Shown here piece by piece: positions 2,297 to 47,917 of a stretch of DNA of 64,000 bases; the first letter of the stretch is position 1; every line of letters starts with the position of its first letter. Both the position numbers and the translations under genes were made by a program. The notes below the pieces were generated by a model. It had not been told where the DNA came from. It did not search any database and saw only the letters and a list, made by a program, of their open reading frames with translations. Source of the DNA: a virus (Duplodnaviria > Caudoviricetes); IMG/VR virus record IMGVR_UViG_3300044627_003892, one strand, 5' to 3'.

Positions 2297-3076
2297 TTTT
2301 TCTTGATTTTGTCAAAATGTCAGTTGAGTGTCAGATGGGGGATAATCCCCTTGACGGGTTTTAGTCATATTAACAACTATAAATATAGTGTATATTATGT
2401 ATATTGTCCATAGGTAAATGTTCCCACTTTTTACCACTGACGTATGTGTAGTGAGGGTTTTTGGTTATATGAAAAGTGAAAAAAGTGGTCCTCCTGATAG
2501 TGTGAGAAGGGTTTTTTTAACTATATACATTTTCCAGATAAAAATAGGATGTAACAATAAAGTGGCGTGGACAGACTTTAGTTGTTTAAATCCTTCAACG
2601 AAAAGTGTATTTCATTGTGTCTTCAAGGGGGTTTTTAAGATTTCCCCTTACCATATAGACACATGATATCGACAATTATAGTGGTGGTAAAAAGTGGGAC
2701 ATATGTTTCATATCACTATAGTCAGGTTAAACCTGACATAACAGATATGTTTCGTATTGTCCCCTTCACATTCCACCATATATTTTATACCCTAACAGGT
2801 ATACTCATATCATCTTATATACCCTTTAGGGTATTTCATTATCCCGATGGGGTACAATACCATTAACAGTAATATGTTATGTCCCTTCATAGTGTGTGTC
2901 TTTCATTATGGGGAATTATTATAGATTAGTGTTGTACGTTAATTATAGATTCATACAATAGGGGAAATTAGGAAGTAAATAAAGGAATGGACCCATTAGT
3001 GTAATGACCCGAAGGGGAATGGAACGACACGATAGTGGAATGGGGGAATGAGTTTGTTTAATTCATAATTTCTTAT

Positions 3077-3084
3077 TATATTTG
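3077..3084 (+). promoter_or_regulatory. Bacteroidetes-type -7 promoter element (TAnnTTTG)
   Basis: TATATTTG 4 nt before the ATG at 3089; same motif at 10573-10580 before the paralog and before many other genes. Confidence 0.65.
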
Positions 3085-3088
3085 TACT

Positions 3089-3883
3089 ATGGTTATTACA
3101 GATAGATTAAAACAAATTATTTTTAAACACCTATATAGAGAGTTAGGTGATTGTGAGATTATTCCTTATAATGGGTCTATATGGTTCATTAATAGGGATA
3201 ATAAACATTGGTACTTTGAACTTGATGAGTCAGGTACTTTATGGTGGAGATACGATTTTTTTAATTCGTTTTTTCAAATATTCTCCATGAGTTCGGATGA
3301 TTTTTGTCCTGTTCTATCTTCTTGGGTGGAAGAGGTCTTAAATCATAAGGTATCCACAACCCAGGATAGCCTGTGTAACGTATGTAAACTGGTGGAAGAG
3401 GTCTTAAATCATAAGGTATCCACAACCTTCATTCCACTTCCAATTACAACGGACAAGGTGGAAGATGTATTAAATCATAAGGTATCCACAACGTGCGATG
3501 TTAAAGTTCGTGTTCCTTGGAAGGTGGAAGATGTATTAAGTCATAATGTTAAGGTGTCTACAACTACCATTCTCAAATACCCCGAGCATTCATTGGTGGA
3601 AAAGGTCTTAAATCATAAGGTATCCACAACCGATTCACTTGATTACGTTGGAAGAATTGAGGTAGAAGAGGTATTAAATCATAGGGTATCTAGAACCTGC
3701 CAAACAAGCGTTTATTGTGATAGGACGGTGGAAGAGGTCTTAAATCATAAGGTATCCACAACGCAGAATTTGAATTATGTCGGCCAAGGACTGGTGGAAG
3801 ATGTATTAAATCATAAGGTATCTACAACGGAATCGTATTTTGGACCCTTCACAAGAGGGGTGGAAGAGGTATTAAATCAATAA
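3089..3883 (+). CDS. array-bearing protein 1: conserved ~80-aa N-terminal domain + VEEVLNHKVSTT repeats with 10-aa variable inserts
   Basis: Open frame across the whole repeat-spacer array; N-terminal domain shared with 10586, 11208 and 11806. Confidence 0.85.
   Translation: MVITDRLKQIIFKHLYRELGDCEIIPYNGSIWFINRDNKHWYFELDESGTLWWRYDFFNSFFQIFSMSSDDFCPVLSSWVEEVLNHKVSTTQDSLCNVCKLVEEVLNHKVSTTFIPLPITTDKVEDVLNHKVSTTCDVKVRVPWKVEDVLSHNVKVSTTTILKYPEHSLVEKVLNHKVSTTDSLDYVGRIEVEEVLNHRVSRTCQTSVYCDRTVEEVLNHKVSTTQNLNYVGQGLVEDVLNHKVSTTESYFGPFTRGVEEVLNQ
3325..3879 (+). CRISPR. CRISPR-like array inside a CDS (8 full + 1 partial repeats, 8 spacers of 30 nt)
   Basis: Repeats start at 3325, 3391, 3457, 3523 (42 bp, +6 insertion), 3595, 3661, 3727, 3793, 3859 (partial); all spacers exactly 30 nt and mutually unrelated; no cas genes seen. 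Confidence 0.7.
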
Positions 3884-4371: not shown

Positions 4372-4701
4372 ATGAAATATCTTATAACAGAATCACAATT
4401 AGATAAAGTAATCTTTAGATATTTGGATATTAAGAACTTTATTCAGATTAAAAGAGGAAACACAATATACTTTGTTAATTCGGAAGATGATAAATATGCC
4501 CAAATCAGATATGATAGAAACGATGGTTGGTGTTATATACGCCATGGATTAATTTACGAAATTTCTTCTTTCTTTTCTTTGGACATATATGATTCTAAGG
4601 AAGTTATCGGTAGATGGGTTGAAAATACTCTACAAATGAGGGTTACTTATACCCGTTTGGTCTTTCACGATGTGAACAATTTGTTTAAAATACCTAACTA
4701 A
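4372..4701 (+). CDS. MKYLITESQL-family protein
   Basis: Paralog of 7873, 6537, 10211 and 49322; ends WVENTL...FKIPN. Confidence 0.8.
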   Translation: MKYLITESQLDKVIFRYLDIKNFIQIKRGNTIYFVNSEDDKYAQIRYDRNDGWCYIRHGLIYEISSFFSLDIYDSKEVIGRWVENTLQMRVTYTRLVFHDVNNLFKIPN

Positions 4702-6222: not shown

Positions 6223-6540
6223 ATGAAGATTGAGCATAAGGTTAAAGCAATTGTAAAACTAATTAATACATTATACTCTCCTGACGAGATTAAAGTTAGA
6301 AAGAGTGAGTTTGATGATGAGATGTTAATTGATGTTTACGTTTCTCATATTGATGACTCATATATAACCAACCCTTACCATTATAATCTTAATAAACTAA
6401 AGGAATTAAATTTAGAACGTGAGATTAGAAGGGCGATAAAGGATTTTTTGAGTATTAAAACAAGCGGACTTAATCCATACACAGGTTTCGCCCCGTATGC
6501 TGTTCACGGCATAACAATAGATGTAAGATTAATATTATGA
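6223..6540 (+). CDS. hypothetical phage protein
   Basis: ATG MKIEH after a tatctttg motif. Confidence 0.6.
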   Translation: MKIEHKVKAIVKLINTLYSPDEIKVRKSEFDDEMLIDVYVSHIDDSYITNPYHYNLNKLKELNLEREIRRAIKDFLSIKTSGLNPYTGFAPYAVHGITIDVRLIL

Positions 6541-6890
6541 AATACCTTATAACAGAATCAAAATTAGAGAAAGTAATCTTTAAGTATCTTGATATTCAGG
6601 ACTTTGTGATATATGACAACAAGAAGAGATTCAGCAATTATATATATTTCTTAAACAGTGAGTCAGATAGGGAATCACAGATTAGTGTTTATACTAACAA
6701 CGCCTTTGGTGAAGTTAGGAATTGGATATTTGTAAATCGTGATTTGACTGATAAATTATCTACCTTATTCCCCATTGGTAAATCGGATTGTTTGGATATA
6801 ATCAAAGAATGGGTTAATAATACTTTGGGTATTAGTGATAGTACGATTTGGGATGGTCCATATGATTACAGATTAGCGGTTACAGATTAA
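6537..6890 (+). CDS. MKYLITESQL-family protein
   Basis: MKYLITESKLEKVIFKYLD ... WVNNTL. Confidence 0.8.
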   Translation: MKYLITESKLEKVIFKYLDIQDFVIYDNKKRFSNYIYFLNSESDRESQISVYTNNAFGEVRNWIFVNRDLTDKLSTLFPIGKSDCLDIIKEWVNNTLGISDSTIWDGPYDYRLAVTD

Positions 6891-7872: not shown

Positions 7873-8202
7873 ATGAAATACCTTATCACCGAATCACAAT
7901 TAGACAGAGTAATCTTTAGATATTTGGATATTAAGAACTTTATTCAGATTAAAAAGGGTGCAACTATATTTTTAGTTAATTTAGAAGATGATGAATACGC
8001 TGAGATTAGATATGATAAAATTAGTGGATGGTGTTACATTGTTAATAGTTTAATTAATGAAGTGGCCTCTTTCTTTTCTTTGGGTATCTCCGATTCCATG
8101 GAACTTATCCGTAGATGGGTTGAAAATACCCTCAAAGTAATAGTTGTACAAGTCCGTGGGGCTAAACCCGCACCGAATGTATGGATAAGAGTAAATAACT
8201 AA
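7873..8202 (+). CDS. MKYLITESQL-family protein
   Basis: Close paralog of 4372..4701. Confidence 0.8.
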   Translation: MKYLITESQLDRVIFRYLDIKNFIQIKKGATIFLVNLEDDEYAEIRYDKISGWCYIVNSLINEVASFFSLGISDSMELIRRWVENTLKVIVVQVRGAKPAPNVWIRVNN

Positions 8203-9009: not shown

Positions 9010-9810
9010 TTAGATTAACGTACCAACATATCCTAATGCATCCCAATGACTCTTTCCTTTTGGTGTCTTAGTTGCACCCGCTACCACATCTAATCCTCTT
9101 GCTTTCGATGGACCTGTAATAACATGTGATGATGGAACTCCTTTACCTACCGCAGACTGAACTGAACTTGATGTATTCTTAGATATAGCGTAAGGTTCTA
9201 CTATGAATAACTTACTTTTGTTTTTAATAAGAGAAGCAACTTTAGATGAGTATGAACATCCTGCACTGAATAATACAACTGTCGCGTTAGGATTTTGTAT
9301 GATTGCGGTTTCAATCTTATCAAATTGATTATATCTATATCCTATAACATTTTTCTTTGAACTATTACTTTTAAGTAAGTTTATTTGTTCACCTATGTTT
9401 AAGTCTCCCTTTCTATAATCTAATCCACCCATTAATATAACATCAACAATTGGAGCTTTAGAATCTTTTTTATCATCAGACTCCGTTGATTCGTATATGA
9501 CATCAACACATTCTTTATTATAAAACCTTTCTAAGTCATCCCTCATGTAGTTTTCTACATACGTAACACCATCTTTATATTTTAACCACTCAGACAACGG
9601 ACCATCGGTATCAGAACCATCTGTAATCATGTCCATAATTTCATGTTGTATACCACGCATGAATGCTTCAAAGTTTTCAAAATCACATGGATAATTAGTT
9701 ACATTGTTATCCCATACAAACGATTTAAATCTATTCAATCTTCTTTTGAACTTTGGTGAAAAATCTGTTTCTTCCCTTAATACTTTTTTTATATTCTCTT
9801 GTAGGTTCAT
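9010..9810 (-). CDS. MNLQE-leader protein with possible alpha/beta-hydrolase-like C-terminal domain
   Basis: Leader motif; C-terminal VILMGGLDY...VLFSAGC...H. Confidence 0.6.
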   Translation of the reverse strand: MNLQENIKKVLREETDFSPKFKRRLNRFKSFVWDNNVTNYPCDFENFEAFMRGIQHEIMDMITDGSDTDGPLSEWLKYKDGVTYVENYMRDDLERFYNKECVDVIYESTESDDKKDSKAPIVDVILMGGLDYRKGDLNIGEQINLLKSNSSKKNVIGYRYNQFDKIETAIIQNPNATVVLFSAGCSYSSKVASLIKNKSKLFIVEPYAISKNTSSSVQSAVGKGVPSSHVITGPSKARGLDVVAGATKTPKGKSHWDALGYVGTLI

Positions 9811-9842: not shown

Positions 9843-10214
9843 ATGAAGTATATTATTACCGAGTCACAACATAAATTAATATCCGAACTTGAAAGAACTT
9901 GGAGAGATTCTGAATATACGGAACAATACAATAGACTAAAACCTAAAATGATTCGTTATTTTGAAAATTTGGTTGATTCACATTCTGAAAATGATGTAAG
10001 ACTTAACTTATTTGATAGTGACCAAAACGCCGTAATGGTTTATAATAAACCAAGTGGTGATTTATACTATAATAGGAACTTTGACGATATATATGGTACA
10101 GCCTTTCCTCATCCCATTTGGTTAGTTCACGGCAAATTCATTATGTCAGATGTATTTAATGAGTTCTTTCCTGACTACGAAGTTAAATCAGTTAGAAGTA
10201 TAACATTATCATGA
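9843..10214 (+). CDS. MKYIITESQ-leader protein
   Basis: Leader motif. Confidence 0.7.
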   Translation: MKYIITESQHKLISELERTWRDSEYTEQYNRLKPKMIRYFENLVDSHSENDVRLNLFDSDQNAVMVYNKPSGDLYYNRNFDDIYGTAFPHPIWLVHGKFIMSDVFNEFFPDYEVKSVRSITLS

Positions 10215-10549
10215 AATATTTAATCACAGAATCACAATTAGATAAAGCAATACTCAAGTTTCTTGATAGTCAGGATTTTAATATAACTAAAATTGGTGCC
10301 AGTACATATATTTCATACCCTGAAGATGATTTTGCTCAGATTAAATATGGTGGTAATCATTCCAATAATGAATTGTGTTTTATCTATAAAGGTTTAATTG
10401 AAGCAATTTCTTCCTTCTTTTCTCTTAACAGTTATCAATCCACCAGAATTGTTGGGCAATGGGTTAAGAAAAAACTGAATTTGGAGGGTCAAATGTCCAA
10501 CAAGATAATGAGCTCCCAATGGTCGTTAAAATTACCAACTGAAGATTAA
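10211..10549 (+). CDS. MKYLITESQL-family protein
   Basis: Paralog of 4372 (AQIKY...ISSFFSL...IVGQWV). Confidence 0.8.
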   Translation: MKYLITESQLDKAILKFLDSQDFNITKIGASTYISYPEDDFAQIKYGGNHSNNELCFIYKGLIEAISSFFSLNSYQSTRIVGQWVKKKLNLEGQMSNKIMSSQWSLKLPTED

Positions 10550-10585
10550 TTTGTATTTTCAAAGTTTTTTTGTATCTTTGTGCTT

Positions 10586-11224
10586 ATGGTTACAGATAAG
10601 CTAAAACAACTCATATTCAAACACCTATACAAAGAGTTAGGTAATGTGGAGATAATCCCGTATAAAGACTCTGTATGGTTCATTGATAGGGAAAATTGTT
10701 ATTGGTATTTTCAGTTGTCTAAAGATGGATGTTTATTTTGGAGATACTCATTCTTCCCATCGTTTTTCAGTATTTTCTCTTTGGAGCAAAGTGAGTTTGA
10801 ACCAATAATATCTTCTTGGGTGGAAGAGGTATTAAATCATAAGGTATCCACGACAGGTAATAAGCTCGGTTACTTCTCGCGAAAGGTGGAAGAGGTATTA
10901 AATCATAAGGTATCCACAACAAAAATGTTTGTAATTGACGAATTTCCTCTGGTGGAAGAGGTATTAAATCATAAGGTATCCACAACTGAAGAGAAAACTA
11001 CTGTAACAGCAAAGTGGGTGGAAGAGGTCTTAAATCATAAGGTATCCGAAACTTTTGAAGTAGACGCCGCCCAAAAAAGAAAGGTAAAAAAAGTATTAGA
11101 TAGTAGGGTATCAACAACTAAAAATAATTCCTTATTTTCCGAAAGGTCAGTGGAAGAAGTATTAAATAGTGCTTGGGTGAAAAAGGCATTAAACAATAAA
11201 AAAGAAAATGAAAGTAACGGATAG
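10586..11224 (+). CDS. array-bearing protein 2
   Basis: ATG 5 nt after TATCTTTG; same N-terminal domain plus VEEVLNHKVSTT repeats. Confidence 0.85.
   Translation: MVTDKLKQLIFKHLYKELGNVEIIPYKDSVWFIDRENCYWYFQLSKDGCLFWRYSFFPSFFSIFSLEQSEFEPIISSWVEEVLNHKVSTTGNKLGYFSRKVEEVLNHKVSTTKMFVIDEFPLVEEVLNHKVSTTEEKTTVTAKWVEEVLNHKVSETFEVDAAQKRKVKKVLDSRVSTTKNNSLFSERSVEEVLNSAWVKKALNNKKENESNG
10819..11170 (+). CRISPR. CRISPR-like in-frame array (5 repeats + partial, 5 spacers of 30 nt)
   Basis: Repeats at 10819, 10885, 10951, 11017, 11083 (degenerate), 11149 (partial); 66-nt period. Confidence 0.65.
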
Positions 11225-11819
11225 ATTAAGACAACTCATATTCAAACAACTATACAAAGAATTAGGTAATGTGGAAATTATCCCTACCCAATACAGTTAT
11301 TGGTTTATTAATAGAGAAGAAAAATACTGGTATTTCCAACTAACTGAAAGTGGATGTTTATATTGGAGATATGATTATTTCAAATCTTTCTTTTCTTTTT
11401 TCTCTTTGGAGTCCAAAGATTTTGAACCAATTATTTCATCTTGGGTGGAAGAGGTATTGAATAGTAAAGTATCCACAACAATTGTGCAGATGCATCATAA
11501 GAAGGATTCGGTGGAAGAGGTATTGAATAGTAAGGTATCCACAACTCAGCAATTCAGTTTCACTTCGAATGATATGATGGAAGAGGTATTGAATAGTAAG
11601 GTATCCACAACTGCAGGAAAGGCAGGAACTGTAACCATTGCGGTGGAACAGGTATTGAATCGTAAGGTATCCAAAACAGTCCGTGACGTAGGTGAAGGAA
11701 ACTTTTTGGTGGAAGATATATTGAATCGTAAGGTATCCAAAACGGAAGAATTCATCTCAAGAAGAGCGGAATCGGTATATGAGGCATTAAACAACAAAAA
11801 AGAAAATGAAAGTAACTGA
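11208..11819 (+). CDS. array-bearing protein 3 (VEEVLNSKVSTT variant)
   Basis: Paralog overlapping the previous stop; repeat variant LNSK/LNRK. Confidence 0.85.
   Translation: MKVTDRLRQLIFKQLYKELGNVEIIPTQYSYWFINREEKYWYFQLTESGCLYWRYDYFKSFFSFFSLESKDFEPIISSWVEEVLNSKVSTTIVQMHHKKDSVEEVLNSKVSTTQQFSFTSNDMMEEVLNSKVSTTAGKAGTVTIAVEQVLNRKVSKTVRDVGEGNFLVEDILNRKVSKTEEFISRRAESVYEALNNKKENESN
11444..11795 (+). CRISPR. CRISPR-like in-frame array (5 repeats + partial, 5 spacers of 30 nt)
   Basis: Repeats at 11444, 11510, 11576, 11642, 11708, 11774 (partial); consensus GGTGGAAGAGGTATTGAATAGTAAGGTATCCACAAC. Confidence 0.65.
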
Positions 11820-12540
11820 TAGATTAAAACAGGTTGTATTCAAACAACTATACAAAGAATTAGGTAATGTGGAGATAATCCCATATAAAGATTCTATATG
11901 GTTAATTGACCGAGAAAAGGAGCATTGGTATTTTGAATTTGAAAAGAGTGGTCGTTTGTGGTGGAGATATTATTTCTTTAATAGTTTTTTTACTATTTTC
12001 TCATTGGAACCCAAAGATTTTGAACCAATACTCTCTTCTTGGGTGGAAGAGGTATTAAATCATAAGGTGCCCACAACTGAATTGTGTGCGGAGAAAAAGT
12101 ATGATGAGGTGGAAGAGGTATTAAATCATAAGGTATCTACAACTGTTTACATGGGCATGAAGGCAAGTGTGAAGATGGAAGAGGTATTAAATCATAAGGT
12201 ATCCACAACGCAAAACGATATCGGTAAAGAAGGTTTCTTGGTGGAAGATGTATTAAATCATAAGGTATCTACAACACAAACGACGAATGCGGAACAAGTG
12301 GTTTTGGTGGAAAAGGCATTAAATCATAAGGTGTCTACAATATCATTCAATACACCGCCGTTTCCGAATATGGTGGAGAAGGTATTAAATCATAAGGTGT
12401 CTAAAACCTATTGTAGACCCACTATTGTTCCCAGTGAGGTGAAAGAAGTCCTAAATCATAAGGTAACTACAACACACACATCACGTACATGTAATTCACC
12501 AGTGGTGGAAGAGGTATTAAATGAAAACCCCACTGAGTAG
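11806..12540 (+). CDS. array-bearing protein 4
   Basis: Paralog with 7 variable inserts. Confidence 0.85.
   Translation: MKVTDRLKQVVFKQLYKELGNVEIIPYKDSIWLIDREKEHWYFEFEKSGRLWWRYYFFNSFFTIFSLEPKDFEPILSSWVEEVLNHKVPTTELCAEKKYDEVEEVLNHKVSTTVYMGMKASVKMEEVLNHKVSTTQNDIGKEGFLVEDVLNHKVSTTQTTNAEQVVLVEKALNHKVSTISFNTPPFPNMVEKVLNHKVSKTYCRPTIVPSEVKEVLNHKVTTTHTSRTCNSPVVEEVLNENPTE
12042..12522 (+). CRISPR. CRISPR-like in-frame array (7 repeats + partial, 7 spacers of 30 nt)
   Basis: Repeats at 12042, 12108, 12174, 12240, 12306, 12372, 12438, 12504 (partial). Confidence 0.65.
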
Positions 12541-12593: not shown

Positions 12594-13214
12594 TTAAGTA
12601 TTTTTATCTCTAAGTCTTTCATCTGTTTCTTCTTGGACTTCAGGTATGAATCTATCCAAGATTATTTCATACACTTCTGGTAAGTAAAACGTATTATACC
12701 AATCAAATAAATTATCAACACTATTAAAAAAATAATTACCATTATGTGTATTATGTGTAAGTTCCACAAAATAATCACCATCACCACTTGTATCGTATAT
12801 TCCTACATTAGGTTTCTTTGAGTCATCTTCTAATCCATACCAATCAAGTTCAACGGGTGTATAATCAGCAGTTGCAAAAAAAGGTGTTGCCATTACCCAT
12901 ATTTTTTCTAATACATTAGGTGGATAGTGTCCCGATTTAAACTGCCTTGTCCAATAAAACACATCATCACTACTTATTTCAATTTCAAATCCTTTATATT
13001 TTGCAGGTAAATTACCATTTTCAATATTTTCAACCAATAGTTCTTTAGCAACAAATTCATCAATTTTTAAATCAGACATTTTGTATAAATAGGTAAGACT
13101 CACACCCATCATTTTTGCCGTCTTATAAACACCATGTTTACCAACAGTATCCATAATGAATTTACTCTTTTTATCTTCCCTTAATACTCTTCTTATGTGT
13201 TCCTGTAGATTCAT
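12594..13214 (-). CDS. MNLQE-leader family protein
   Basis: MNLQEHIRRVLRED. Confidence 0.75.
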   Translation of the reverse strand: MNLQEHIRRVLREDKKSKFIMDTVGKHGVYKTAKMMGVSLTYLYKMSDLKIDEFVAKELLVENIENGNLPAKYKGFEIEISSDDVFYWTRQFKSGHYPPNVLEKIWVMATPFFATADYTPVELDWYGLEDDSKKPNVGIYDTSGDGDYFVELTHNTHNGNYFFNSVDNLFDWYNTFYLPEVYEIILDRFIPEVQEETDERLRDKNT

Positions 13215-13215
13215 A

Positions 13216-13644
13216 TTAATTACTTTTACCTGTTCCTTTATTGATTAATTTTATACAGTTAGATGATATATTCTCAAATGTCACAATATGATGTTCATAA
13301 TCTCCACCTTCGAAATGTGCATCTCTATACCAAGTAACCCCAGCACATTCTGTATCTATTAACCATGTGTCATCATCATAACCATCACTAAACATATCTT
13401 CTTTATCCAATGAATCTGTGGCAAAAATTGCTGGTTGACATTCCGTATACCATTCACCATATAAATCCATTGCGTGATTCTCATAACATTCCCCTACCGA
13501 TGTCAACAACCCATTAAGTCGTATATTCTTTCTCCATACCGAATTTGATTTATGGACCACAAACTTATTAGGTGTATATTCATCTCCTGATGGAGAATAT
13601 AGTTCTTCCCTTAATATTCGTCTTATTGTTTCTTGTAGGTTCAT
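13216..13644 (-). CDS. MNLQE-leader protein, possible ADP-ribosyltransferase-like fold
   Basis: Leader motif; VVHKS...NIRLNGL...IFAT...IVTFENI pattern reminiscent of Tpt1/ART-like domains (weak). Confidence 0.5.
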   Translation of the reverse strand: MNLQETIRRILREELYSPSGDEYTPNKFVVHKSNSVWRKNIRLNGLLTSVGECYENHAMDLYGEWYTECQPAIFATDSLDKEDMFSDGYDDDTWLIDTECAGVTWYRDAHFEGGDYEHHIVTFENISSNCIKLINKGTGKSN

Positions 13645-14108
13645 TTCTTTGTATTTTTAACACAGTTAGGGTATCTCTTACCAAACATAGTTTTCATTCC
13701 TTTTTGAGTATATCCTTTCCAACATCTTTCAGTTAATTCACCTTCTTTCATCTCCTGAGTTTTCTTTTTAGATTGTTCTTTTTTGGATTCAATATATTCA
13801 AAGGCAGTTCTTAATCTTTTCTTAACCTCAGGGTCTTTCGCTCTTTCCAAAGCCACTCGTAATCTTTGATGAATTAGATTTATAATCTGAGACTGACGAG
13901 CGTGTGATTTAGATTTGAAACTTTCTTTGTTTAAAGTATCTACAATATCTTGTTTTGTTCTGAACTTAACCGATACAGTATCCTTTGGGTTTTCATCAGT
14001 ATATAATCTTCTGTCGGAATCTTTTGGTTTCTTACCTGTTCCAACTTTGGGGTCTGACTCAACCAAGTATTTCCTCAATAATCTTCTTATTTGTTCTTGT
14101 AGGTTCAT
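13641..14108 (-). CDS. MNLQE-leader basic protein
   Basis: MNLQEQIRRLLRK. Confidence 0.7.
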   Translation of the reverse strand: MNLQEQIRRLLRKYLVESDPKVGTGKKPKDSDRRLYTDENPKDTVSVKFRTKQDIVDTLNKESFKSKSHARQSQIINLIHQRLRVALERAKDPEVKKRLRTAFEYIESKKEQSKKKTQEMKEGELTERCWKGYTQKGMKTMFGKRYPNCVKNTKK

Positions 14109-14109
14109 A

Positions 14110-14745
14110 TTATCTATTATCTAATCTATTAACCTCATTATTACGAAGTTTATTCAAATACATCCATTCTAAAGACCCAGGCTCTCTTTCTTCTAACGCC
14201 AATAAATCTTTTTTACGCCATAGTGTATTGTTCATAATAACCTTAATCATCTCGTCTTGAGTAACTCCTTCAGGTACTTCTTTAATTGGTGGAACACACG
14301 TATATGACCTATCATTAAATGATAATTCTTCAACAGATATATCATTTCTACCCATCATATTTGAGATTTTACTTAAAAAAGTATCTTCAAACCATTCTTC
14401 AATTATATAATAAAGATAATTTCTTCTAACAGGAAAAGCCCCTAATAGTCCACCAACAAAATCTTCTTGTACTGATAATGTTGAAGATTCAAATTGTCTT
14501 TTAGACGTTGGGGTTTTATCGTTAGTTTCTTCAAAGAACAATGCAAGATTCATTATTTGTTTTCCATTCTTACAAAACTCAAAATCGTGTCTTGTTTTAT
14601 AACTTTCAACGTGGTATATTTCAGCACCTGAAGCCATACTATTCAATCTATCCAAAATAAATTTCTCGGATTTTTCACTCGGTTTCAAATACTTCTTGTT
14701 AACCTCTTCTCTTAATACTCTTTTTATGTGTTCCTGTAAGTTCAT
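14110..14745 (-). CDS. MNLQE-leader family protein
   Basis: MNLQEHIKRVLREE. Confidence 0.75.
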   Translation of the reverse strand: MNLQEHIKRVLREEVNKKYLKPSEKSEKFILDRLNSMASGAEIYHVESYKTRHDFEFCKNGKQIMNLALFFEETNDKTPTSKRQFESSTLSVQEDFVGGLLGAFPVRRNYLYYIIEEWFEDTFLSKISNMMGRNDISVEELSFNDRSYTCVPPIKEVPEGVTQDEMIKVIMNNTLWRKKDLLALEEREPGSLEWMYLNKLRNNEVNRLDNR

Positions 14746-14754
14746 AATATATAA

Positions 14755-15063
14755 TTAGTCGTAATGTAAATAAATATAAAATTTGAATGGGAAAAACCTT
14801 GTAATGATTGAACCAATTTCTTTAATTGTTTCTTGTTTTACTTTATTAAAACCTTTGGGATTATCTATCGCATATTGTCTATCATAAAATATATTAACTT
14901 GAAATCCATTCATCATTTCGTCATAATCAAACTCAACACGTTTAACTGCCTTAAATTTTAGTTTGCTGAATAATGTATTAGCAGTTTTTACAAAATGCTC
15001 CACCTTATCAAACTTTTCAGTCTCCTCTTTTAATACTTTTTTTATGTGTTCTTGTAGGTTCAT
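14755..15063 (-). CDS. MNLQE-leader family protein
   Basis: MNLQEHIKKVLKEE. Confidence 0.75.
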   Translation of the reverse strand: MNLQEHIKKVLKEETEKFDKVEHFVKTANTLFSKLKFKAVKRVEFDYDEMMNGFQVNIFYDRQYAIDNPKGFNKVKQETIKEIGSIITRFFPFKFYIYLHYD

Positions 15064-15991: not shown

Positions 15992-16108
15992 TTTGTCAGT
16001 ATAAGTTTTTATCATTACATTTGTAGTAATGAAAAAGAGCGACAAAATAGAATCCGTAATCTTTACACTTGTTGCCTTGGTTGCAGTTGTATCAATGATT
16101 TTTATAGG

Positions 16109-17099: not shown

Positions 17100-17696
17100 T
17101 TACACAATATCTTTTGTTTCAATCAATGTATATGTAAAACGATTTCCGTGAATGTCTTTTGACTTACGACAAATCTTCATAAACTCTTCAAAGTCCGCAG
17201 CCTTCTTAAAGACCTGACATCCTTCAGACCAATTCTCAACATATGTTGAATCAGCACCTGCCTTGTGAATGTTAATACCATAAACACCTTCAGTGATTTT
17301 GTTCTCATCATAAGTCATATCTTTATTGGCATCACGATAAACTTTAACCGCTCTATCCTGTCCCAAAGCTTCGTACTTACCCTGATGTAATCTGATAATA
17401 TGTGAACCACGGTATTGACCTTCAACCAAACGAGCAACACCATCTTTGTTGTGGTATTCCATTACACCCTTCTTACCTGGGTCAGTCGTTGCCGGCCAAA
17501 CGTGACACTTCCATTGTCCATTCTCTTTGTAAGAAATAGTTAAATAATCATCAAAAGCATTTGTAACCTTTTGTCCTGTTGCAGTGTTTCTGATTCCAAC
17601 GATGTTAACATCGTAACCTTTATTAGCAGTATCTTCAAACCATACATAACCTTTTGATTTTACCGCAGTTTCAATTTGTTCTTTTGTGTAACTCAT
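17100..17696 (-). CDS. L,D-transpeptidase-like (YkuD-fold) putative peptidoglycan hydrolase/endolysin
   Basis: GINIHKAG...NWSEGCQV resembles the H-x(n)-S-x-G-C catalytic motif. Confidence 0.6.
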   Translation of the reverse strand: MSYTKEQIETAVKSKGYVWFEDTANKGYDVNIVGIRNTATGQKVTNAFDDYLTISYKENGQWKCHVWPATTDPGKKGVMEYHNKDGVARLVEGQYRGSHIIRLHQGKYEALGQDRAVKVYRDANKDMTYDENKITEGVYGINIHKAGADSTYVENWSEGCQVFKKAADFEEFMKICRKSKDIHGNRFTYTLIETKDIV

Positions 17697-17736
17697 AGTA
17701 TATTTGTTTTACTATAAGTATTTATATAATAAGAAA

Positions 17737-38353: not shown

Positions 38354-39037
38354 TTATTTATCTTTGTTAGGACTTGCCCCATACTTTACCCCAAGTATTG
38401 TTCCCACGATACTGAAACTATTTGTTAACAGGATACCAAACATATTACTCCAAGTGGAGCCAATGATGTCTGTATCCATTCCTATTGACATAGAATAAAC
38501 ATATATACCAGTCGTAATAAATCCAACACCTATGATTACATAAAGTGCAACTCTAACAATATTATTAATCAACTCAAATTGAGTTTTCTTCTGTATTAAA
38601 TCCAAATTGTTTTCAGCTTCGTTCTTAGCGTTTTCAGCAGTTATTCTTGCTTGTTCAGATTGTTTCATTGCCTCAACAAGTTCGGCACCAATCTTTTCGT
38701 TCTCCATTTTCCATTCAAGAAGTTCAGAGTTTTGACTTTCAATCTGATTGTTTTGGTCTTCCATACTTGTTAAAGTATTTTGGAGTTCCTCCATCATTCT
38801 TTGATTTTCTTCGTTAAGTTCAGTCAAGTCTTTGTTCTGAATCTGAACCTGTTTGGTCATCTCTAAACGTTTACGTCTGGTTGTAGTATCCTTTTCAATA
38901 CAAGTTTTAAGATACTCTTTAAACTCTTGGTCATCTTCAGCATCTATTAATTTAGTAATGTTACCCTCAAGACCAATGTTCTTGGTCTTAAAGGTCTCCA
39001 TTAATATCTTCTTTGTATTTTTATCTAAAACAATCAT
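38354..39037 (-). CDS. coiled-coil protein with C-terminal TM pair
   Basis: Long heptad region then two TM helices; directly downstream of the response regulator. Confidence 0.7.
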   Translation of the reverse strand: MIVLDKNTKKILMETFKTKNIGLEGNITKLIDAEDDQEFKEYLKTCIEKDTTTRRKRLEMTKQVQIQNKDLTELNEENQRMMEELQNTLTSMEDQNNQIESQNSELLEWKMENEKIGAELVEAMKQSEQARITAENAKNEAENNLDLIQKKTQFELINNIVRVALYVIIGVGFITTGIYVYSMSIGMDTDIIGSTWSNMFGILLTNSFSIVGTILGVKYGASPNKDK

Positions 39038-39465
39038 TTATAAACTTTGAAAGGGTTTGTTCTGTTCTTATATCCGTCGTAGTCTTTCTTAAACTCTTCA
39101 AGTCTTGGTTCAATGTCATCCGACTTGATAATCCAAAACTGAGCACCAGCCTGAACTGCCTTAGCCTGTTCTTCAGGTTCGTTACTTGAAGATATGATAC
39201 CGATAACTACATGGTTACCATATTCAAAGTTAATCTTACGGATAAGTTCAATACCATCAAAGGATGAACCTATAATGTTTAAATCCACAAACACACATTC
39301 AGGTTTTTGTGATGTATCTTTTTGCCATCCAGCAAATAATTTAGCAGCTTCATCCGAACTGTTCAAACTTCTTAATGACAATGTAATGTCAAGTAATGAA
39401 CAAGAGTCCTCAAATACCAAGTGGAACAAATCCTCGTCATCCACTAACAAAATTGAATCAATCAT
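39034..39465 (-). CDS. single-domain response regulator (receiver)
   Basis: ILLVDDED, VFVDLNI (phospho-Asp), IISSS, IIK. Confidence 0.9.
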   Translation of the reverse strand: MIDSILLVDDEDLFHLVFEDSCSLLDITLSLRSLNSSDEAAKLFAGWQKDTSQKPECVFVDLNIIGSSFDGIELIRKINFEYGNHVVIGIISSSNEPEEQAKAVQAGAQFWIIKSDDIEPRLEEFKKDYDGYKNRTNPFKVYK

Positions 39466-39479
39466 TTTTTTCTTTCTCT

Positions 39480-40808
39480 TTATTTTATTTTTATTTTCAT
39501 TTTGGTTCCACCTTCAATTTTTTCACAACTCAATTTAAAACCATGTTCTTCTAATATCGCAACACATATATTCAACCCAAGACCCTTCTCTTCACCAGTG
39601 ACATCAGCCTTCTTTGAATACTTTGTTAAATGTTTTTCAAGTTGTTTTTGTGAGAATCCTTTACCATTGTCCTCAACTATTAAATATTCTTCTTCGTTAT
39701 ATATCTTAACTTTTTTAACTTCACTATCGTTATATGATAAACCATTCTTAATTAAGTTCTCAACCGCATTACAGAATAAAGTCTCATTCACTTCCATATC
39801 ACCCAAGTCAGATATCTCAACCTGTGAACTATATGAATTTGGTGAAATGTATTTCCAAATCAAATCTTTAGCGTTAACCACAGATTTATTTAACACAACA
39901 TTTTGTTTAACAAGATTGGTAAACTCATAAACACTCTTATAAACTTTTTGAGTGTGGTTTAATCCTTCTTTAACCATCTTAAGTGCTCCTTCAATCTTCA
40001 ATCTTTGGATGTCCTCAACGGTTAATCTTTTTTCTAATGATGTAATACCTCTTGGCATGTATGTATTAATACCTGAGTGCATGTCATGTCTGATGATTCT
40101 TGCTGCGTGTTCCAAGTAACTATTCTTCTTAGCAATATCACTAATCTGTTGTTCAATCTCAACATCCTGTACTTGTATTCTCTTTCTTTGTAAGACAACC
40201 GCCAATATTAAAACAAACAGTATAACAACACCTAAAGCACCATAAAGGTATTTCTTCAAGGTCTCTCTTTGTTTTTCCAAATCAGTTTTTTCAGTCATCA
40301 AATTTCCATTCTCATCCATTAAGTCATCAGTCTCCAAAGTCAAACCGATGATATTCTTTTCTTTACTTAACGAAGTAATGGTATTTTCTTTTGATTTTAT
40401 AAGTTCTTCATTTCTTATAGCTTGAGCTAATAATAAATCTCGTTCTGCGGTAAGTTTATTAATCTTGTTATCAATTTGAACTAATACATTTTTTAAATCT
40501 TCTTTAGGTAAATCAGTATACGATTTTGGTAAGTCAGTTAAAAACTGTAAGTCTTCAGCAATACTTGCTAAATCACTTTCAGACAATTTAGTTTCATCAA
40601 CTGGTTCAGGTTCAGGTGGAATCCAAGTTGTAACGATTTCTTGTATATCCATAGCCGCAACTTGACTAGTATCACCATCAATCTGTAAATTATCGTTAGA
40701 CCATGAAACGTCAATTCCGTCAACTAATGTATCGTTGTAATTCAAATTTTGTGAGTGTAAACCTGTCGATACGAGTGTTACTAAAATCAATAATATTATC
40801 TTTTTCAT
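39480..40808 (-). CDS. membrane sensor histidine kinase
   Basis: Signal peptide, coiled coil, TM, IRHDMHSG (H box), NLIKNG (N box), DNGKG, GLGLNIC. Confidence 0.9.
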   Translation of the reverse strand: MKKIILLILVTLVSTGLHSQNLNYNDTLVDGIDVSWSNDNLQIDGDTSQVAAMDIQEIVTTWIPPEPEPVDETKLSESDLASIAEDLQFLTDLPKSYTDLPKEDLKNVLVQIDNKINKLTAERDLLLAQAIRNEELIKSKENTITSLSKEKNIIGLTLETDDLMDENGNLMTEKTDLEKQRETLKKYLYGALGVVILFVLILAVVLQRKRIQVQDVEIEQQISDIAKKNSYLEHAARIIRHDMHSGINTYMPRGITSLEKRLTVEDIQRLKIEGALKMVKEGLNHTQKVYKSVYEFTNLVKQNVVLNKSVVNAKDLIWKYISPNSYSSQVEISDLGDMEVNETLFCNAVENLIKNGLSYNDSEVKKVKIYNEEEYLIVEDNGKGFSQKQLEKHLTKYSKKADVTGEEKGLGLNICVAILEEHGFKLSCEKIEGGTKMKIKIK

Positions 40809-41425
40809 TACTTTTTTAATTCTTCTTTTAATAAACTTTTATTTTTCCAAATCCATGATTCATATCTTCGAGTTATACCATTAAAATCAAGAAACTTTAA
40901 ATTGTGAAAATAATTTGTTGCTGGTGCGAACTGCATATCAAACTCTTCTCTGAATTTTTTATATTCTTCATACTCACTTTTAGTCATTTTTTCAAAAACA
41001 AGAATTTTTCCGTATTCATGAGTGTAAAGATTGTAATCATCTAAATTCACAAAATATAACTTGTTGTATGGGGGTATAGTGTATATGAACGCTCCATTTG
41101 TAGCGTATTCCCAAAGAGTCATGTTCAATTCATCAGCCCATTTATATGTCGTATCTGCTACATATTTGATACTATCTAACATGTTAGGTATATTTTCAAC
41201 AATGTTATTTAAACTATCTATCTTATTATTTAAGGATGTGATTTTTTTACCTTGTTCTCTAATAATCCTTCTTTGTGTTTCAATTGCTTTATTAATATCA
41301 ACAGATTGTTTAACAGATAGGATAACAACAGAGTCACCTCTATAGATTGTTTGAATTGGGTATTTAATTTGACTAAACCCAAACAAAGAAATTGTTAAGA
41401 AAATAAAAGTTAGTAATGTTTTCAT
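40808..41425 (-). CDS. secreted coiled-coil hypothetical protein
   Basis: Signal peptide; lies between the two kinases. Confidence 0.65.
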   Translation of the reverse strand: MKTLLTFIFLTISLFGFSQIKYPIQTIYRGDSVVILSVKQSVDINKAIETQRRIIREQGKKITSLNNKIDSLNNIVENIPNMLDSIKYVADTTYKWADELNMTLWEYATNGAFIYTIPPYNKLYFVNLDDYNLYTHEYGKILVFEKMTKSEYEEYKKFREEFDMQFAPATNYFHNLKFLDFNGITRRYESWIWKNKSLLKEELKK

Positions 41426-42693
41426 TTAAATTTGATTTTCATTTTAGTTCCTGTTTCATTTTTTTCACAGGTTATTTTAAATCCGTGTTCTTCTAAAATG
41501 GCAACACAGATATTCAATCCTAAACCAGTACCCGATTCTTTTTGACCTTCTTTTCTGGTGTATGGTTTTGATAAATAATTAAAATCTTCTTGGGTAATAC
41601 CTCTACCATTATCCTGTATGAATATCATATCACCTTCAGAGTATATCTTAACAAACTTTGTTTCAGAGTCGTTATACTTTAAACCATTCCTAATTAGATT
41701 ATCAACTGCAGTACAGAACAATGGTTCATTCAATTCAATCGTTGGTAGGTTATCATCCAACATAACCTGACTAATGTATGCCGTCGAGGACAAATAGTCC
41801 TTGAGAATGTCCTTGATGTTAAATTCAGTTTTATTAAGAACAACATCTTTCTTTACCAGATTGGTAAATTCATAAACACCTTTATAAACTTTCTGTGAAT
41901 GCTTAAGTCCTTCCTTAATCATTTTAAGTGGTGCCTCAATTTTAAGTTTAACAATATCTTCTTGAGTTAATCTTCTCTCCAACGAGTTAACACCTCTTGG
42001 TATATAGGTATTAATACCTGAATGCATATCGTGTCTCAATATCTTAGCAGCATGTTCCAAGTATGTATTCTTTCTTTCAATCTCTTTCTTCTGTTCGTAA
42101 GAATTCGTGATATCAATAGCGATTTTCATAACACGATAAATCTTACCATCAGTATCAAAAATAGGATTGTAGGTCGCTTGTAAATAAACTAAAGACCCAT
42201 CTTTTTTAACTCTAACAATTTCCCCTGAAAATAATACACCACTTCTTAATTTTTCCCAAAAAAGACAATAATCCTCACTTTTCTCATAATCATCTTCCAC
42301 AAAAATTCTGTGATGTTTTCCAACTATTTCATCCTGTGATGGATATCCCATAGTTTTTATAAACAAATCATTGGCAAAAATAATATTACCTTCTAAATCA
42401 AATTCAATTACCGCATTAGATTTATTGATAGCGGTCATTCTATTAGTAAGTTCATTTTCTATTTTAATTAACTTATCTACAGATTCTTTAGATATTGAAT
42501 TTTTATTAGATTTGATAAAGTCTTTAATCATTAATATTGATATAGGAATTAACAAAATAAAACAAATGTATTCAATACCACGTGTAACTCTTGTTGATTC
42601 CTGTATTTCAAGTAAAACCGATGTTTTAACCAAAAAGAATACAGACATTATTAAAATAGAACAAAGTAAATAGATTTTTGTTTTTTTAGTCAT
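41422..42693 (-). CDS. PAS/PAC sensor histidine kinase
   Basis: 2 TMs, PAS (AVIEFDLEGNIIFANDLF...GKHHRIF...ATYNPI), LRHDMHSG, NLIRNG, DNGRG, GLGLNIC. Confidence 0.92.
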   Translation of the reverse strand: MTKKTKIYLLCSILIMSVFFLVKTSVLLEIQESTRVTRGIEYICFILLIPISILMIKDFIKSNKNSISKESVDKLIKIENELTNRMTAINKSNAVIEFDLEGNIIFANDLFIKTMGYPSQDEIVGKHHRIFVEDDYEKSEDYCLFWEKLRSGVLFSGEIVRVKKDGSLVYLQATYNPIFDTDGKIYRVMKIAIDITNSYEQKKEIERKNTYLEHAAKILRHDMHSGINTYIPRGVNSLERRLTQEDIVKLKIEAPLKMIKEGLKHSQKVYKGVYEFTNLVKKDVVLNKTEFNIKDILKDYLSSTAYISQVMLDDNLPTIELNEPLFCTAVDNLIRNGLKYNDSETKFVKIYSEGDMIFIQDNGRGITQEDFNYLSKPYTRKEGQKESGTGLGLNICVAILEEHGFKITCEKNETGTKMKIKFK

Positions 42694-42765: not shown

Positions 42766-44646
42766 CTACTTACCAACTTCTTCAAAATCTACATCAGATA
42801 CTTCAGAATCGTTATTCTCCATTTCGTTCATGTTGTTCATTTCAGAAGTTTGACTATAAAGATTTACAGTAATCTCTTGGAACACCTTGTTGATGTTATC
42901 AATACCTTCCTTAATCTTCTCAATATCTTTTGACGAATGAGCCGACTTTAATTCTTCAAGAGCTACAGTTACCTCTGACTTTTGTTCTTCCGTAATCTTG
43001 TCTTCAATATCTTTCAAAGACTTTTCCACTTGGAAGATTGTTGTGTCAGCTTGGTTGATAACCTCAGCATCTTCTTTTGCTTTCTTATCTGATTCAGCGT
43101 TCATCTCCGCTTCCTTCTTCATCGTTTCAATCTCTTCTTTCGAAAGTCCTGATGATGATTCAATACGGATATTTTGTTGTTTGTTAGTTCCTTTGTCAAG
43201 AGCCGATACATTGATAATACCATTAGCATCAATATCAAACGTTACCTCAACCTGTGGAATACCTCTTTGTGCCGGTGGGATACCATCCAGGTGGAAACGT
43301 CCAATACTTCGGTTGTCTTTCGCCATTGCTCTCTCACCTTGTAATACATGGATTTCAACGGTTGGTTGGTTATCAACTGCAGTTGAGAATACCTGTGACT
43401 TCTTGGTCGGGATAGTAGTGTTCGCTTCAATTAACTTTGTGAATACTCCACCCATAGTTTCAATACCAAGTGATAGTGGTGTTACATCTAATAACAATAC
43501 ATCTTTAACATCACCTGCTAATACACCTGCCTGAATTGCTGCTCCAAGAGCAACAACCTCATCAGGGTTAACACCCTTTGATGGTTCCTTACCGAAGAAC
43601 TTCTTAACTGCTTCCTGAATTGCCGGAATACGTGTTGTTCCTCCAACCAAAATGATTTCGTCAATATCACTTGTCTTAATTCCTGCGTTCTTCAATGCCG
43701 ACTTACAAGGAGCAATAGTTCTTTCAACCAAACTATCAACAAGTTGTTCAAACTTAGCCTTAGTTAAAGTTCTTACCAAGTGTTTCGGTATACCATCAAC
43801 AGGCATAATATATGGTAAGTTAATCTCCGTAGATGGTGAAGAAGATAATTCAATCTTCGCCTTCTCAGCTCCTTCACGAAGACGTTGAAGAGCCATAGCA
43901 TCTTTGGTCAAGTCAATTCCGTTTTCATCTTTGAACTCTGTAACCAACCAGTCAATGATTGCTTGGTCAAAGTCATCACCACCAAGGTGTGTATCACCAT
44001 CAGTAGACAATACTTCAAAAACACCATCACCAAGTTCCAAGACAGATACGTCATGTGTTCCACCACCACAGTCAAACACAACAATCTTCATATCTTTAGA
44101 TTGTTTGTCCAATCCGTAAGCAAGTGCCGCCGCAGTTGGTTCATTAACAATTCTCATTACTTTCAAACCTGCAATCTCTCCAGCTTCTTTCGTAGCTTGA
44201 CGTTGAGCATCGTTGAAGTATGCTGGTACCGTGATAACTGCCTCAGTTACCTCTGAACCCAAATAGTCCTCAGCAGTTTGTTTCATCTTTTGGAGAACCA
44301 TTGCCGAAATTTCTTGTGGTGAATATTTTCTATCCTCAATCTCAACACGAGGAGTTCCACCATCACCCTTAACTACTTTATAAGGAACACGTTTAACCTC
44401 ACCCTTACTTTCATCAAAACTTGTTCCCATGAAACGTTTGATAGATGAGATAGTCTTATCAGGATTAGTAACCGCCTGACGTTTAGCAGGGTCACCAACC
44501 TTTCTTTCACCACCATTTAAGAAACCCACAATTGAAGGGGTGGTTCTTTTTCCTTCACTGTTTGTAATTACAACTGGTTCGTTACCTTCCATTACGGCAA
44601 CACATGAGTTAGTTGTTCCAAGGTCAATACCTATAATTTTTCCCAT
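42766..44646 (-). CDS. dnaK: molecular chaperone DnaK
   Basis: [50 protein letters not shown]. Confidence 0.98.
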
Positions 44647-47543: not shown

Positions 47544-47888
47544 TCATTTCCAAAACAACTGAACCATCAGTATCATCAAACTCAATAACAAACATACACC
47601 AGTTTTAATCGTTATCGGTTCACCAAATAATGAGACAGACATAATTGTAAACATTATCGTACCAATAACAAACCCTATCAATCTTGATGGCCACAACTGA
47701 CCGTCAAAATGTTGAACCATTAAACCAACTGATGTCATAAACAATATTGAAATCGGGATACCCATCAACACAACCAACCACTGATGGTTTTTCATCCACT
47801 CAAACTTCCATCTCCCCTGTAGTTGTAAGAAAGTTAGTACTTGAGCGAGTGACCCGATTAACATTGCCAGTAATAATTTCATTAACAA
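47544..47888 (-). CDS. small four-TM membrane protein
   Basis: Four hydrophobic segments, SMR/EamA-like layout. Confidence 0.65.
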   Translation of the reverse strand: MLMKLLLAMLIGSLAQVLTFLQLQGRWKFEWMKNHQWLVVLMGIPISILFMTSVGLMVQHFDGQLWPSRLIGFVIGTIMFTIMSVSLFGEPITIKTGVCLLLSLMILMVQLFWK

Positions 47889-47917
47889 ATATAAGGTGAA
47901 ACTTTTAGATAATCAAA

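Follow-up and report, generated by a model that had tools for sequence, protein, structure and literature searches.

How can a phage gene come to hold what looks like a CRISPR array inside its reading frame, and what would write such an array? The question is raised by three overlapping genes at positions 10586-12540 of a 64,000-nt stretch of viral DNA (IMG/VR record IMGVR_UViG_3300044627_003892; Duplodnaviria, Caudoviricetes), the whole of which we call the window. The window is AT-rich jumbo-phage DNA (32% GC) that codes for Hsp70, two histidine kinases, ThyA, an RNA ligase and a GlnA-like protein, and its sequence is present in at least 18 lake-water metagenome runs from 2020-2024. Our analysis suggests that the three genes contain translated CRISPR-type arrays written by a CRISPR integrase, most likely the type II-C Cas1-Cas2 of the bacterial host. 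We hold this reading, taken as a whole, to be moderately probable.

Three overlapping genes carry in-frame arrays of repeats and spacers

The array genes lie on the plus strand at 10586-11224 (gene 1, 212 aa, with orthologues in IMG/VR contigs), 11208-11819 (gene 2, 203 aa) and 11806-12540 (gene 3, 244 aa). Genes 2 and 3 each start within the end of the preceding gene, and both starts fall within the junction sequence AAAGAAAATGAAAGTAAC. Each gene opens with an N-terminal segment of about 78 residues that ends ..SSW (the N-domain; 10586-10818, 11208-11443 and 11806-12041, respectively) and continues as in-frame 66-nt units. Each unit pairs a repeat of 36 nt (GGTGGAAGAGGTATTAAATCATAAGGTATCCACAAC, translated VEEVLNHKVSTT) with a variable stretch of 30 nt, the spacer. 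A fourth paralogue of the family lies at 3089-3883 on the same strand, with a promoter motif of its own at 3053-3084, eight spacers and an irregular 72-nt unit.

Array 1 occupies 10819-11148 within the array part of gene 1 (10819-11224). Its repeats are located at 10819, 10885, 10951, 11017 and 11083, its spacers at 10855-10884, 10921-10950, 10987-11016, 11053-11082 and 11119-11148, and two truncated or degenerate repeats follow at 11149-11198. Array 2 (11444-11773) has spacers at 11480-11509, 11546-11575, 11612-11641, 11678-11707 and 11744-11773, and a truncated repeat at 11774-11797. Its first three repeats are of an AGT/ACAAC variant (TTGAATAGT, translated LNSK), and its fourth and fifth are of a CGT/AAAAC variant (TTGAATCGT...AAAAC, translated LNRK..SKT). 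Array 3 (12042-12521) contains seven spacers, at 12078-12107, 12144-12173, 12210-12239, 12276-12305, 12342-12371, 12408-12437 and 12474-12503, and ends with a truncated repeat at 12504-12521. Every array closes with a truncated repeat (GTGGAAGAGGTATTAAAT) and a short tail.

The three arrays hold 5, 5 and 7 spacers, each exactly 30 nt long. All 24 regular spacers of the window are mutually unrelated: the two that are most alike still differ at 16 of 30 positions, and pairwise differences as a whole are centred on the random expectation. The repeat, allowing up to three mismatches, has 15 matches in the window and none in 100 shuffled versions of it, and an Rfam search returned neither CRISPR-DR nor any other family. 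An initial annotation of the window had described the overlapping starts, the unshared spacers, the LNSK variant of gene 2 giving way to LNRK, the decay of distal repeats and the truncated array ends, and its observations are confirmed in all their elements.

Spacers match the chromosomes of one bacterial genus

We next searched for the source of the spacers. The phage DnaK was used as a guide to choose a bacterial order, and 401 genomes of that order were searched with the array DNA. Seven genomes gave matches of 28-29/30 exactly on spacer coordinates, and all seven belong to a single genus of Bacteroidota. This host genus comprises 27 species-level genomes of 1.6-2.8 Mb, of which 21 match the three-gene arrays and 23 match the 3089 array, with best spacer alignments of 31/31, 29/29 and 28/28. 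Within the genus, N-domains and repeats receive no reported match. Of the 17 cluster spacers, at least 8 are matched: spacer 1 of array 1 (27/30 in host genome G1204); spacers 2 (28/28 and 29/30), 3 (29/30) and 5 (87%) of array 2; and spacers 1 (91%), 2 (29/30, in a leucine dehydrogenase gene), 3 (27/30) and 7 (26/28) of array 3. Spacers 1 and 2 of the 3089 array match at 29/29 and 31/31, and the arrays of a related phage contig (L005) match the same genus, including a 32/32 alignment in genome G872. The spacers are also near the host in base composition, with 40.2 +/- 0.7% GC compared with 41.4% for the host loci and 32% for the phage. Phage or Flavobacterium fragments passing the same filter against stop codons average 34% GC.

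The matches are specific to this genus among the sequences searched. Control samples of 401 Bacteroidota and 401 Flavobacterium genomes gave no spacer match other than low-complexity ones, cultured phages and plasmids (INPHARED, PLSDB) yielded no protospacers and only noise at E >= 0.1, and two spacers searched for in IMG/VR were found in orthologous arrays only, so that no viral target is indicated. In JGI metagenome contigs two spacers had 0 hits, in a scan that also missed phage contigs known to contain one of them and is therefore uninformative. Contamination of the metagenome-assembled genomes (MAGs) with phage contigs is unlikely because the protospacers sit in long housekeeping-type open reading frames (ORFs) that are conserved between species and have no flanking repeats. 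The nearest named NCBI homologues of the leucine dehydrogenase, at 85% and 75%, come from MAGs that bear the labels 'Bacteroidetes bacterium' and 'Flavobacteriales bacterium', respectively. On the evidence of these alignments, the spacers are evidently captured pieces of host chromosome.

Some further features of the phage touch on its host. The DnaK/Hsp70 gene (42766-44646, minus strand) encodes a protein that shares 73-79% identity with DnaK from a single order of Bacteroidota, compared with about 65-68% for most other genomes sampled; the order includes the spacer-supplying genus, and DnaK is a usable marker of host lineage. A protein with a type IX secretion system (T9SS) C-terminal sorting domain (Por_Secre_tail), encoded at 3011-3742 of the related jumbo-phage contig L127, likewise points to a host among the Bacteroidota. 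Relatives of the phage histidine kinase were also considered as a host clue and were ruled out, as they belong to other phages.

Thirteen distinct protospacers can be oriented: seven are sense, four of these in the phage's reading frame, and six are antisense. A mixture of this kind is expected from random capture of double-stranded host DNA followed by a filter against stop codons. Sense-only spacers and mimicry of host peptides were ruled out on the same counts. An F. columnare-type protospacer-adjacent motif (PAM; TTTANNNNN upstream) was looked for at the protospacers and not seen.

The protospacers also bear on a plainer explanation, in which the units form an ordinary protein tandem repeat that has expanded by slippage or unequal crossing-over and diversified its linkers, or are cassettes like those in precursors of ribosomally synthesized and post-translationally modified peptides (RiPPs), and no CRISPR machinery is involved. 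The 22-residue in-frame period and the conserved helix motif would suit this explanation, as would the shuffling of cassettes between genes and the hypervariable inserts with constant flanks, which recall cyanobactin-type precursors. It does not account for spacers that are near-exact copies of host chromosome in any frame and on either strand, for their lack of relationship to one another, for unit borders that lie out of codon register or for the polar age of the repeats (see below). The host protospacers exclude a plain protein tandem repeat. A RiPP multi-core precursor was ruled out given that the cassettes derive from host DNA irrespective of frame and strand and that no maturation-enzyme genes were recognised beside the cluster; no reverse transcriptase was identified either. 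We give explanations of this class almost no credence.

Arrays appear to grow at the domain-proximal repeat

The initial annotation proposed that the arrays grow by copying of the domain-proximal repeat, with the coding domain acting as the leader. Orthologous arrays in related phage contigs have distal spacers in common and differ at the proximal end. The 10586-type array of the window, for example, reads GNKLG, KMFVI, EEKTT, FEVDA, KNNSL from proximal to distal, and its counterpart in contig L001 reads RIPSV, GNTLA, KMFVI, EEKTT, FEVDA, KNNSL. Across 117 unique arrays we found 268 cassette families, 193 of them singletons. Of the cassettes at the first position 51% are singletons, compared with 31% of those at the last, and the mean population frequency of cassettes rises from 2.6 to 6.3 between the same positions.

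The repeats show the same polarity. Mismatches to the first repeat of the array climb with distance across 46 family genes (2.7, 4.8, 6.5, 9.5 and 11.7), as counted in a fixed 66-nt register in which irregular units, such as the 72-nt unit of the 3089 gene, inflate the distal values. All 11208-type orthologues have old spacers with CGT/AAAAC (or ATT/AAAAC) repeats, middle spacers with CGT/ACAAC and new spacers with AGT/ACAAC. Layering of variants from oldest to newest towards the domain is predicted by copying of the leader-proximal repeat.

The family is large and uniform. A protein search returned 932 homologues. All come from metagenomes, some of them on contigs about 294 kb in length, and the architecture is identical throughout, although the length window of the search would have left out array-less forms. 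Distant lineages carry repeat variants of their own (VEEVLNCKVNTT, VEDTLNCKVLST, VEGILNRGVSAT and VEEVLKHGVSST), and repeat termini in other phage lineages include ..CTCTCAAC and ..AACACAAC. The distant lineages nevertheless keep the 36 + 30 geometry, the leading G, proximal repeats that are identical even at synonymous sites, and degenerate distal repeats. Comparison of these sequences supports polar growth in which the repeat nearest the domain is the growing point and the domain takes the position of a leader. The earlier reading of array growth is thus largely supported, by the orthologous arrays and variant strata and also by the host-derived spacers and the likeness to host II-C arrays. 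Its further suggestion, that the arrays expanded independently of one another, stands only in part, as cassettes have also moved between paralogue types.

Arrays are constrained both as nucleotide sequence and as protein

We examined constraint in units taken from the window and 53 IMG/VR loci. Spacer length is exactly 30 nt in 343/347 cases. A G precedes the Val codon in 93/93 unique units, though the amino acid of that G's codon varies, and the third base of the last Thr codon in the unit is free. The unit is therefore best described as 1+33+2 nt, out of codon register. The Val itself is written GTG in 34 of 35 distinct first repeats, compared with 26% GTG among the Val codons of the N-domain.

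A second set of constraints is visible in the protein. In 147 unique spacers there is one stop codon in the coding frame and there are 52-151 in the other five frames, and premature stops are purged even in array genes that have no downstream partner gene. Among 59 degenerate distal repeats, residues V1, E2, V4, L5, N6 and V9 are kept at 0.68-0.95, whereas random substitution would leave 0.39-0.48. The N-domain is under purifying selection (ratio of nonsynonymous to synonymous polymorphism, pN/pS, of 0.21), and the amino-acid composition of the spacers is near that of random translation. The translated tail seems to matter, since stops are purged from it though the N-domain would stay intact, and old repeats keep their amphipathic-helix motif. 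Judged from these patterns, the arrays are probably translated and under protein-level selection.

The same counts are relevant to a neutral origin. Helix-coding DNA could resemble the host repeat by chance, the integrase could mis-integrate there, and a disordered tail could tolerate the outcome, with selection removing frameshifts and stops only. Scars of this kind would be expected to contain random host fragments, from either strand and in any frame and without a PAM, and to have an amino-acid composition close to random translation, as is the case; the predicted disorder of the tail and the stability of the arrays over 4 years would also fit. A neutral history would not, however, be expected to preserve recognition-type nucleotides by means of disfavoured codons when they could be mutated away (GTG in 34/35 vs 26%; the leading G in 93/93). 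Nor would it purge stops so nearly completely from spacers (1 in 147), where they spare the N-domain, even in genes without a coupled downstream gene, or retain the helix motif in the protein encoded by old repeats. The more than 900 homologues, found with a search length window that would exclude array-less forms, all have multi-unit arrays. We consider neutral scars unlikely.

A host integrase is the best-supported candidate writer

Searches of the window found no cas-like matches near the arrays, and Cas1 (PF01867) is absent from five related phage genomes, two of them complete. In the host genus, genome G872 has a type II-C locus with the order cas9-cas1-cas2-leader-array (L201, G872:C13, 9339-15122). 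The repeat of this locus, in the direction of the cas genes, is GGTGTTTCGAATATTTCAAAGATCTCAATTAAACAGCAATTCACAAC (47 nt); its spacers are 30 nt long in 9/10 cases, its leader ends ..CATTTG and its most distal repeats are degenerate. None of its 10 spacers matches the phage sequences analysed here. The phage repeat shares with the G872 repeat the 5' GGTG and 8/9 of the last bases (ATCCACAAC vs ATTCACAAC), and the phage and G872 arrays are alike in spacer length, in the TTG|GGTG junction and in polarity. Not one of 200,000 shuffled versions of the phage repeat matched at both termini. Cas1 is present in 16/201 genomes of the host family, and the II-C arrays there combine 30-nt spacers with repeats of 47 or 36 nt that have the same termini; one of the 36-nt repeats ends ..AGCAATCCACAAC.

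Loading of an array by an integrase encoded elsewhere has a precedent. In Bacteroidota, VI-B arrays with 36-nt repeats and no Cas1 of their own are loaded in trans by II-C Cas1-Cas2 (PMC8092290). In most such species the II-C repeats are 11 bp longer and share only a leader-distal GTTGT motif with the VI-B repeats, and many spacers of the VI-B arrays originate in the host genome, with transcription of these arrays proceeding from the leader (PMC8092290). Given the absence of Cas1 from the related phages, the matching II-C arrays of the host and the VI-B precedent, host Cas1-Cas2 acting in trans is most likely the writer and is the best-supported candidate; we infer the identity of the integrase from these analogies.

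The writer might instead be an unrecognised enzyme encoded by the phage, which would insert host fragments arising from the phage's degradation of the host chromosome. The rarity of Cas1 in the host genus (1/27) and the lack of a PAM are compatible with such an enzyme, as are the very wide distribution of a family in which arrays are always present and the existence in the same phage of further paralogues with single repeat-spacer units. Against this, a search of related phages turned up no Cas1, no candidate enzyme has emerged, and a phage enzyme would leave unexplained why the repeat termini, the 30-nt spacers, the TTG|GGTG junction and the polarity all coincide with those of host-family II-C arrays. 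We allow this alternative only a slim chance.

A different question is whether the arrays act as guide RNAs. A pattern of the exact repeat termini had no match in 185,579 species genomes, and a looser pattern matched only VI-B arrays of F. columnare and F. covae. The phage repeat is identical to the F. covae VI-B direct repeat at 23/36 positions, including GGTATCYACAAC. The ends of the phage repeat (GGTG...CACAAC) are similar to the GTTG...CAAC ends of VI-B repeats, and the phage repeat lacks the internal stem of VI-B (-5.4 vs -10.9 kcal/mol). A host effector (Cas13b or similar) could in principle make CRISPR RNAs (crRNAs) from these arrays, either for host shut-off or as a Racr-like RNA decoy. 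This would be consistent with the 36 + 30 nt geometry, with the identity to the F. covae repeat, with transcription that would run from the leader side as in VI-B, and with spacers that match host genes; phage repeat mimics that inhibit CRISPR are also known (PMC10651486). Approximately half of the spacers are, however, sense to host mRNAs and so unable to guide an RNA-targeting effector. The missing stem, the scan of bacterial species genomes, in which no array had these repeat termini, and the purging of stops and protein-level conservation of old repeats, which guide RNAs would not explain, argue in the same direction. We regard working guide-RNA arrays as distinctly unlikely.

The first repeat is part of the predicted N-domain fold

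Structure prediction had been suggested in the initial annotation, and we carried it out with AlphaFold2 (40-sequence alignment; residues 1-122 of gene 3). The model has a confident alpha/beta domain at residues 1-87 and places the first repeat within its last helix (69-87); everything beyond has a predicted local distance difference test (pLDDT) score < 50. A gene of the MKYLITESQ family lies immediately before the cluster (10211-10549, plus strand), and its domain, including a final WV..L helix, is homologous to the array-gene N-domain. Alignment of the array N-domain with the small MKYLITESQ paralogues by hhalign, including their final WVE.TL helix, gives a probability of 91.7% (E 8e-7). 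The position of the first repeat in the model, together with homology to paralogues that includes the same helix, implies that the repeat corresponds to coding sequence for the last helix of the domain.

MKYLITESQ paralogues are found at 4372-4701, 6537-6890, 7873-8202, 10211-10549 and 49322-49651 (the last on the minus strand). They close with W-VEN-TL (GGTTGAAAATAC..) and, after it, a tail that is short and unrelated. These paralogues may represent the one-unit or no-unit state that preceded array growth.

The cluster has a host-type promoter motif

The initial annotation noted a TAnnTTTG promoter element 5 nt before the cluster. The element, TATCTTTG at 10573-10580, is present and is the -7 box of a complete Bacteroidota sigma-A-type motif, TTTG-N19-TATCTTTG (10550-10580, plus strand), with the ATG of gene 1 beginning 5 nt on. 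So short a distance implies a leaderless or near-leaderless mRNA. A second copy of the motif ends 4 nt upstream of the ATG of the 3089 array gene. The consensus TTTG-N17-21-TAnnTTTG occurs 17 times in the window compared with 3.9 +/- 1.9 times in shuffled sequence, an approximately 4-fold enrichment. The 17 sites are distributed over both strands (for example 3053-3084, 15992-16023, 17675-17706 and 47886-47917), and the motif could serve to map the regulon of the phage that is transcribed early by the host polymerase. The placement of the promoter fits transcription of the cluster by the host polymerase, probably early in infection. Of the earlier proposal of early expression, the host-type motif is therefore borne out, and it is this motif that speaks for earliness.

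Proposed mechanism and its significance

In the scheme that we propose, the DNA encoding the last helix of an ~87-aa domain (W-VEEVLNHKVSTT) would double as a 36-nt host-type CRISPR repeat with the termini GGTG...ATCCACAAC. The integrase would insert host-chromosome fragments of 30 bp at the point where the domain-coding 'leader' meets the first repeat (..TTG|GGTG), and each insertion would copy the first repeat. Units would then age towards the 3' end, where repeats decay, and deletion and recombination between repeats would reshuffle the cassettes. Only exact 30-bp insertions without an in-frame stop would survive because the array is translated as the tail of the protein. In the predicted product, the folded domain is trailed by a flexible chain in which further copies of the domain's amphipathic helix (V-E-x-V-L-N-x-x-V) are joined by arbitrary 10-residue linkers.

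Several results weigh against this scheme. Cas1 is encoded in only 1/27 genomes of the host genus and 16/201 of the host family; MAGs often lose CRISPR loci, and the integrase may also be truly rare in these hosts. The interior of the phage repeat differs from that of the host II-C repeat, and the phage repeat is 11 nt shorter than that of G872. No PAM-like motif is present among the 13 protospacers, and no species genome has all of the protospacers at 30/30. The arrays are mosaic, with some cassettes in different paralogue types, so that polar addition alone does not explain them and deletion and recombination between repeats must also act. No integration event was observed: spacer-spanning contigs were identical between a 2020 and a 2024 lake-water metagenome run, in a comparison that used Logan contigs, which break at repeats. 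Metatranscriptome contigs of related strains join N-domain, repeat and spacer but may represent DNA carry-over. Finally, fold searches with the N-domain gave no informative structural match, and Pfam and PHROG searches with the four array proteins gave noise only.

What the phage would gain is a separate matter. Our leading guess is a multivalent early protein in which the number of helices and the linkers are varied by integration; a decoy role for host adaptation is an alternative benefit. The stronger proposition, that the phage uses the CRISPR integrase of its host to write its own proteins, with every integration contributing another copy of a functional helix and a random 10-residue linker from host DNA, so that the valency and sequence of an early protein vary heritably and adaptively, is possible, and we put it forward tentatively.

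CRISPR arrays are regarded as non-coding memory banks of cellular defence, and full-text literature searches turned up no account of a CRISPR-type array being translated as part of a gene. The arrays of this virus show all the comparative hallmarks of CRISPR adaptation, and they also encode a protein family that numbers more than 900 in lake metagenomes. If the host integrase is the writer, spacer integration can act on phage genomes during infection, and protein sequence can be created from arbitrary DNA. The arrays would then also record the bacteria infected by a phage lineage and allow direct host assignment for uncultured jumbo phages; array-based assignment located the host genus among approximately 1,400 genomes sampled across the phylum. 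The choice of target by Cas1-Cas2 in a cell that contains many decoy arrays becomes testable. A writing device of this kind, if real, would be a new mechanism of diversity generation or repeat expansion, and the first instance in which CRISPR adaptation operates on coding sequence.

Other features of the window

Two further features lie outside the array family. A two-component-like cassette at 39034-42693 (minus strand) contains a PAS histidine kinase, a gene of 205 aa, a second kinase (HATPase) and a gene of 143 aa; in related phage contigs a response regulator (PF00072) stands where the 143-aa gene is found here. The closest homologues (70-100%) all lie on contigs of other jumbo phages, and some of them have additional PAS or GAF domains. 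A second multi-copy family, beginning MNLQE.I+RVLRE, is located at 9010-9810 and 12594-15063 (minus strand), and its 5' ends are conserved at the nucleotide level (direct-repeat family D6).

Comparison with known systems

The phage arrays share with CRISPR arrays in general their fixed-length repeats, unique spacers of near-fixed length, protospacers, polarity and a degenerate terminal repeat. A typical CRISPR array is non-coding, serves as a source of crRNA and has cas genes on the same replicon, whereas the phage arrays lie in a stop-free ORF with signs of protein-level constraint and have no cas-like genes nearby. Cyanobactin PatE-type precursors and diversity-generating retroelements also combine constant flanks with hypervariable short coding cassettes. 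The cassettes of the phage differ from these in being captured host DNA rather than mutated templates or evolved core peptides.

The VI-B arrays of F. columnare (PMC8092290) resemble the phage arrays in their 36-nt repeats, 30-nt spacers, lack of adjacent cas1 and cas2, leader-distal GTTGT motif in common with II-C repeats (often 11 bp longer), polar acquisition at the leader end, many host-genome spacers and transcription from leader to array. Those arrays are chromosomal, and these are carried by a lytic-type jumbo phage, in which a protein-coding domain subject to purifying selection takes the part of the 'leader', the array is a stop-free ORF throughout and the repeat has no internal stem. 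The host II-C array of G872 shares the GGTG...ATYCACAAC termini, a leader ending TTG, 30-nt spacers and a degenerate distal repeat, and 36-nt versions of the repeat exist in the host family. It differs in having a 47-nt repeat whose interior, the part that would pair with the tracrRNA, is unrelated to that of the phage repeat, in being non-coding and in lying beside cas genes, and the II-C crRNA is read from the opposite strand.

Racr and orphan mini arrays (PMC10651486) are also mimics of host repeats carried by viruses without cas genes. They are short and non-coding, while the phage arrays have 5-8 units in a translated gene and spacers derived from the host. Mimicry in the phage is confined to the repeat termini, and the element is coding. 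Off-target ('neo-CRISPR') integration of spacers by Cas1-Cas2 at repeat-like genomic sites was reportedly described by Nivala and colleagues in 2018. Integration of this type, which duplicates its target outside a canonical array, could explain how the phage arrays arose from helix-coding sequence. In the phage, by contrast, the arrangement appears to be ancient and family-wide (>900 homologues), with competence for integration apparently kept by selection at synonymous sites.

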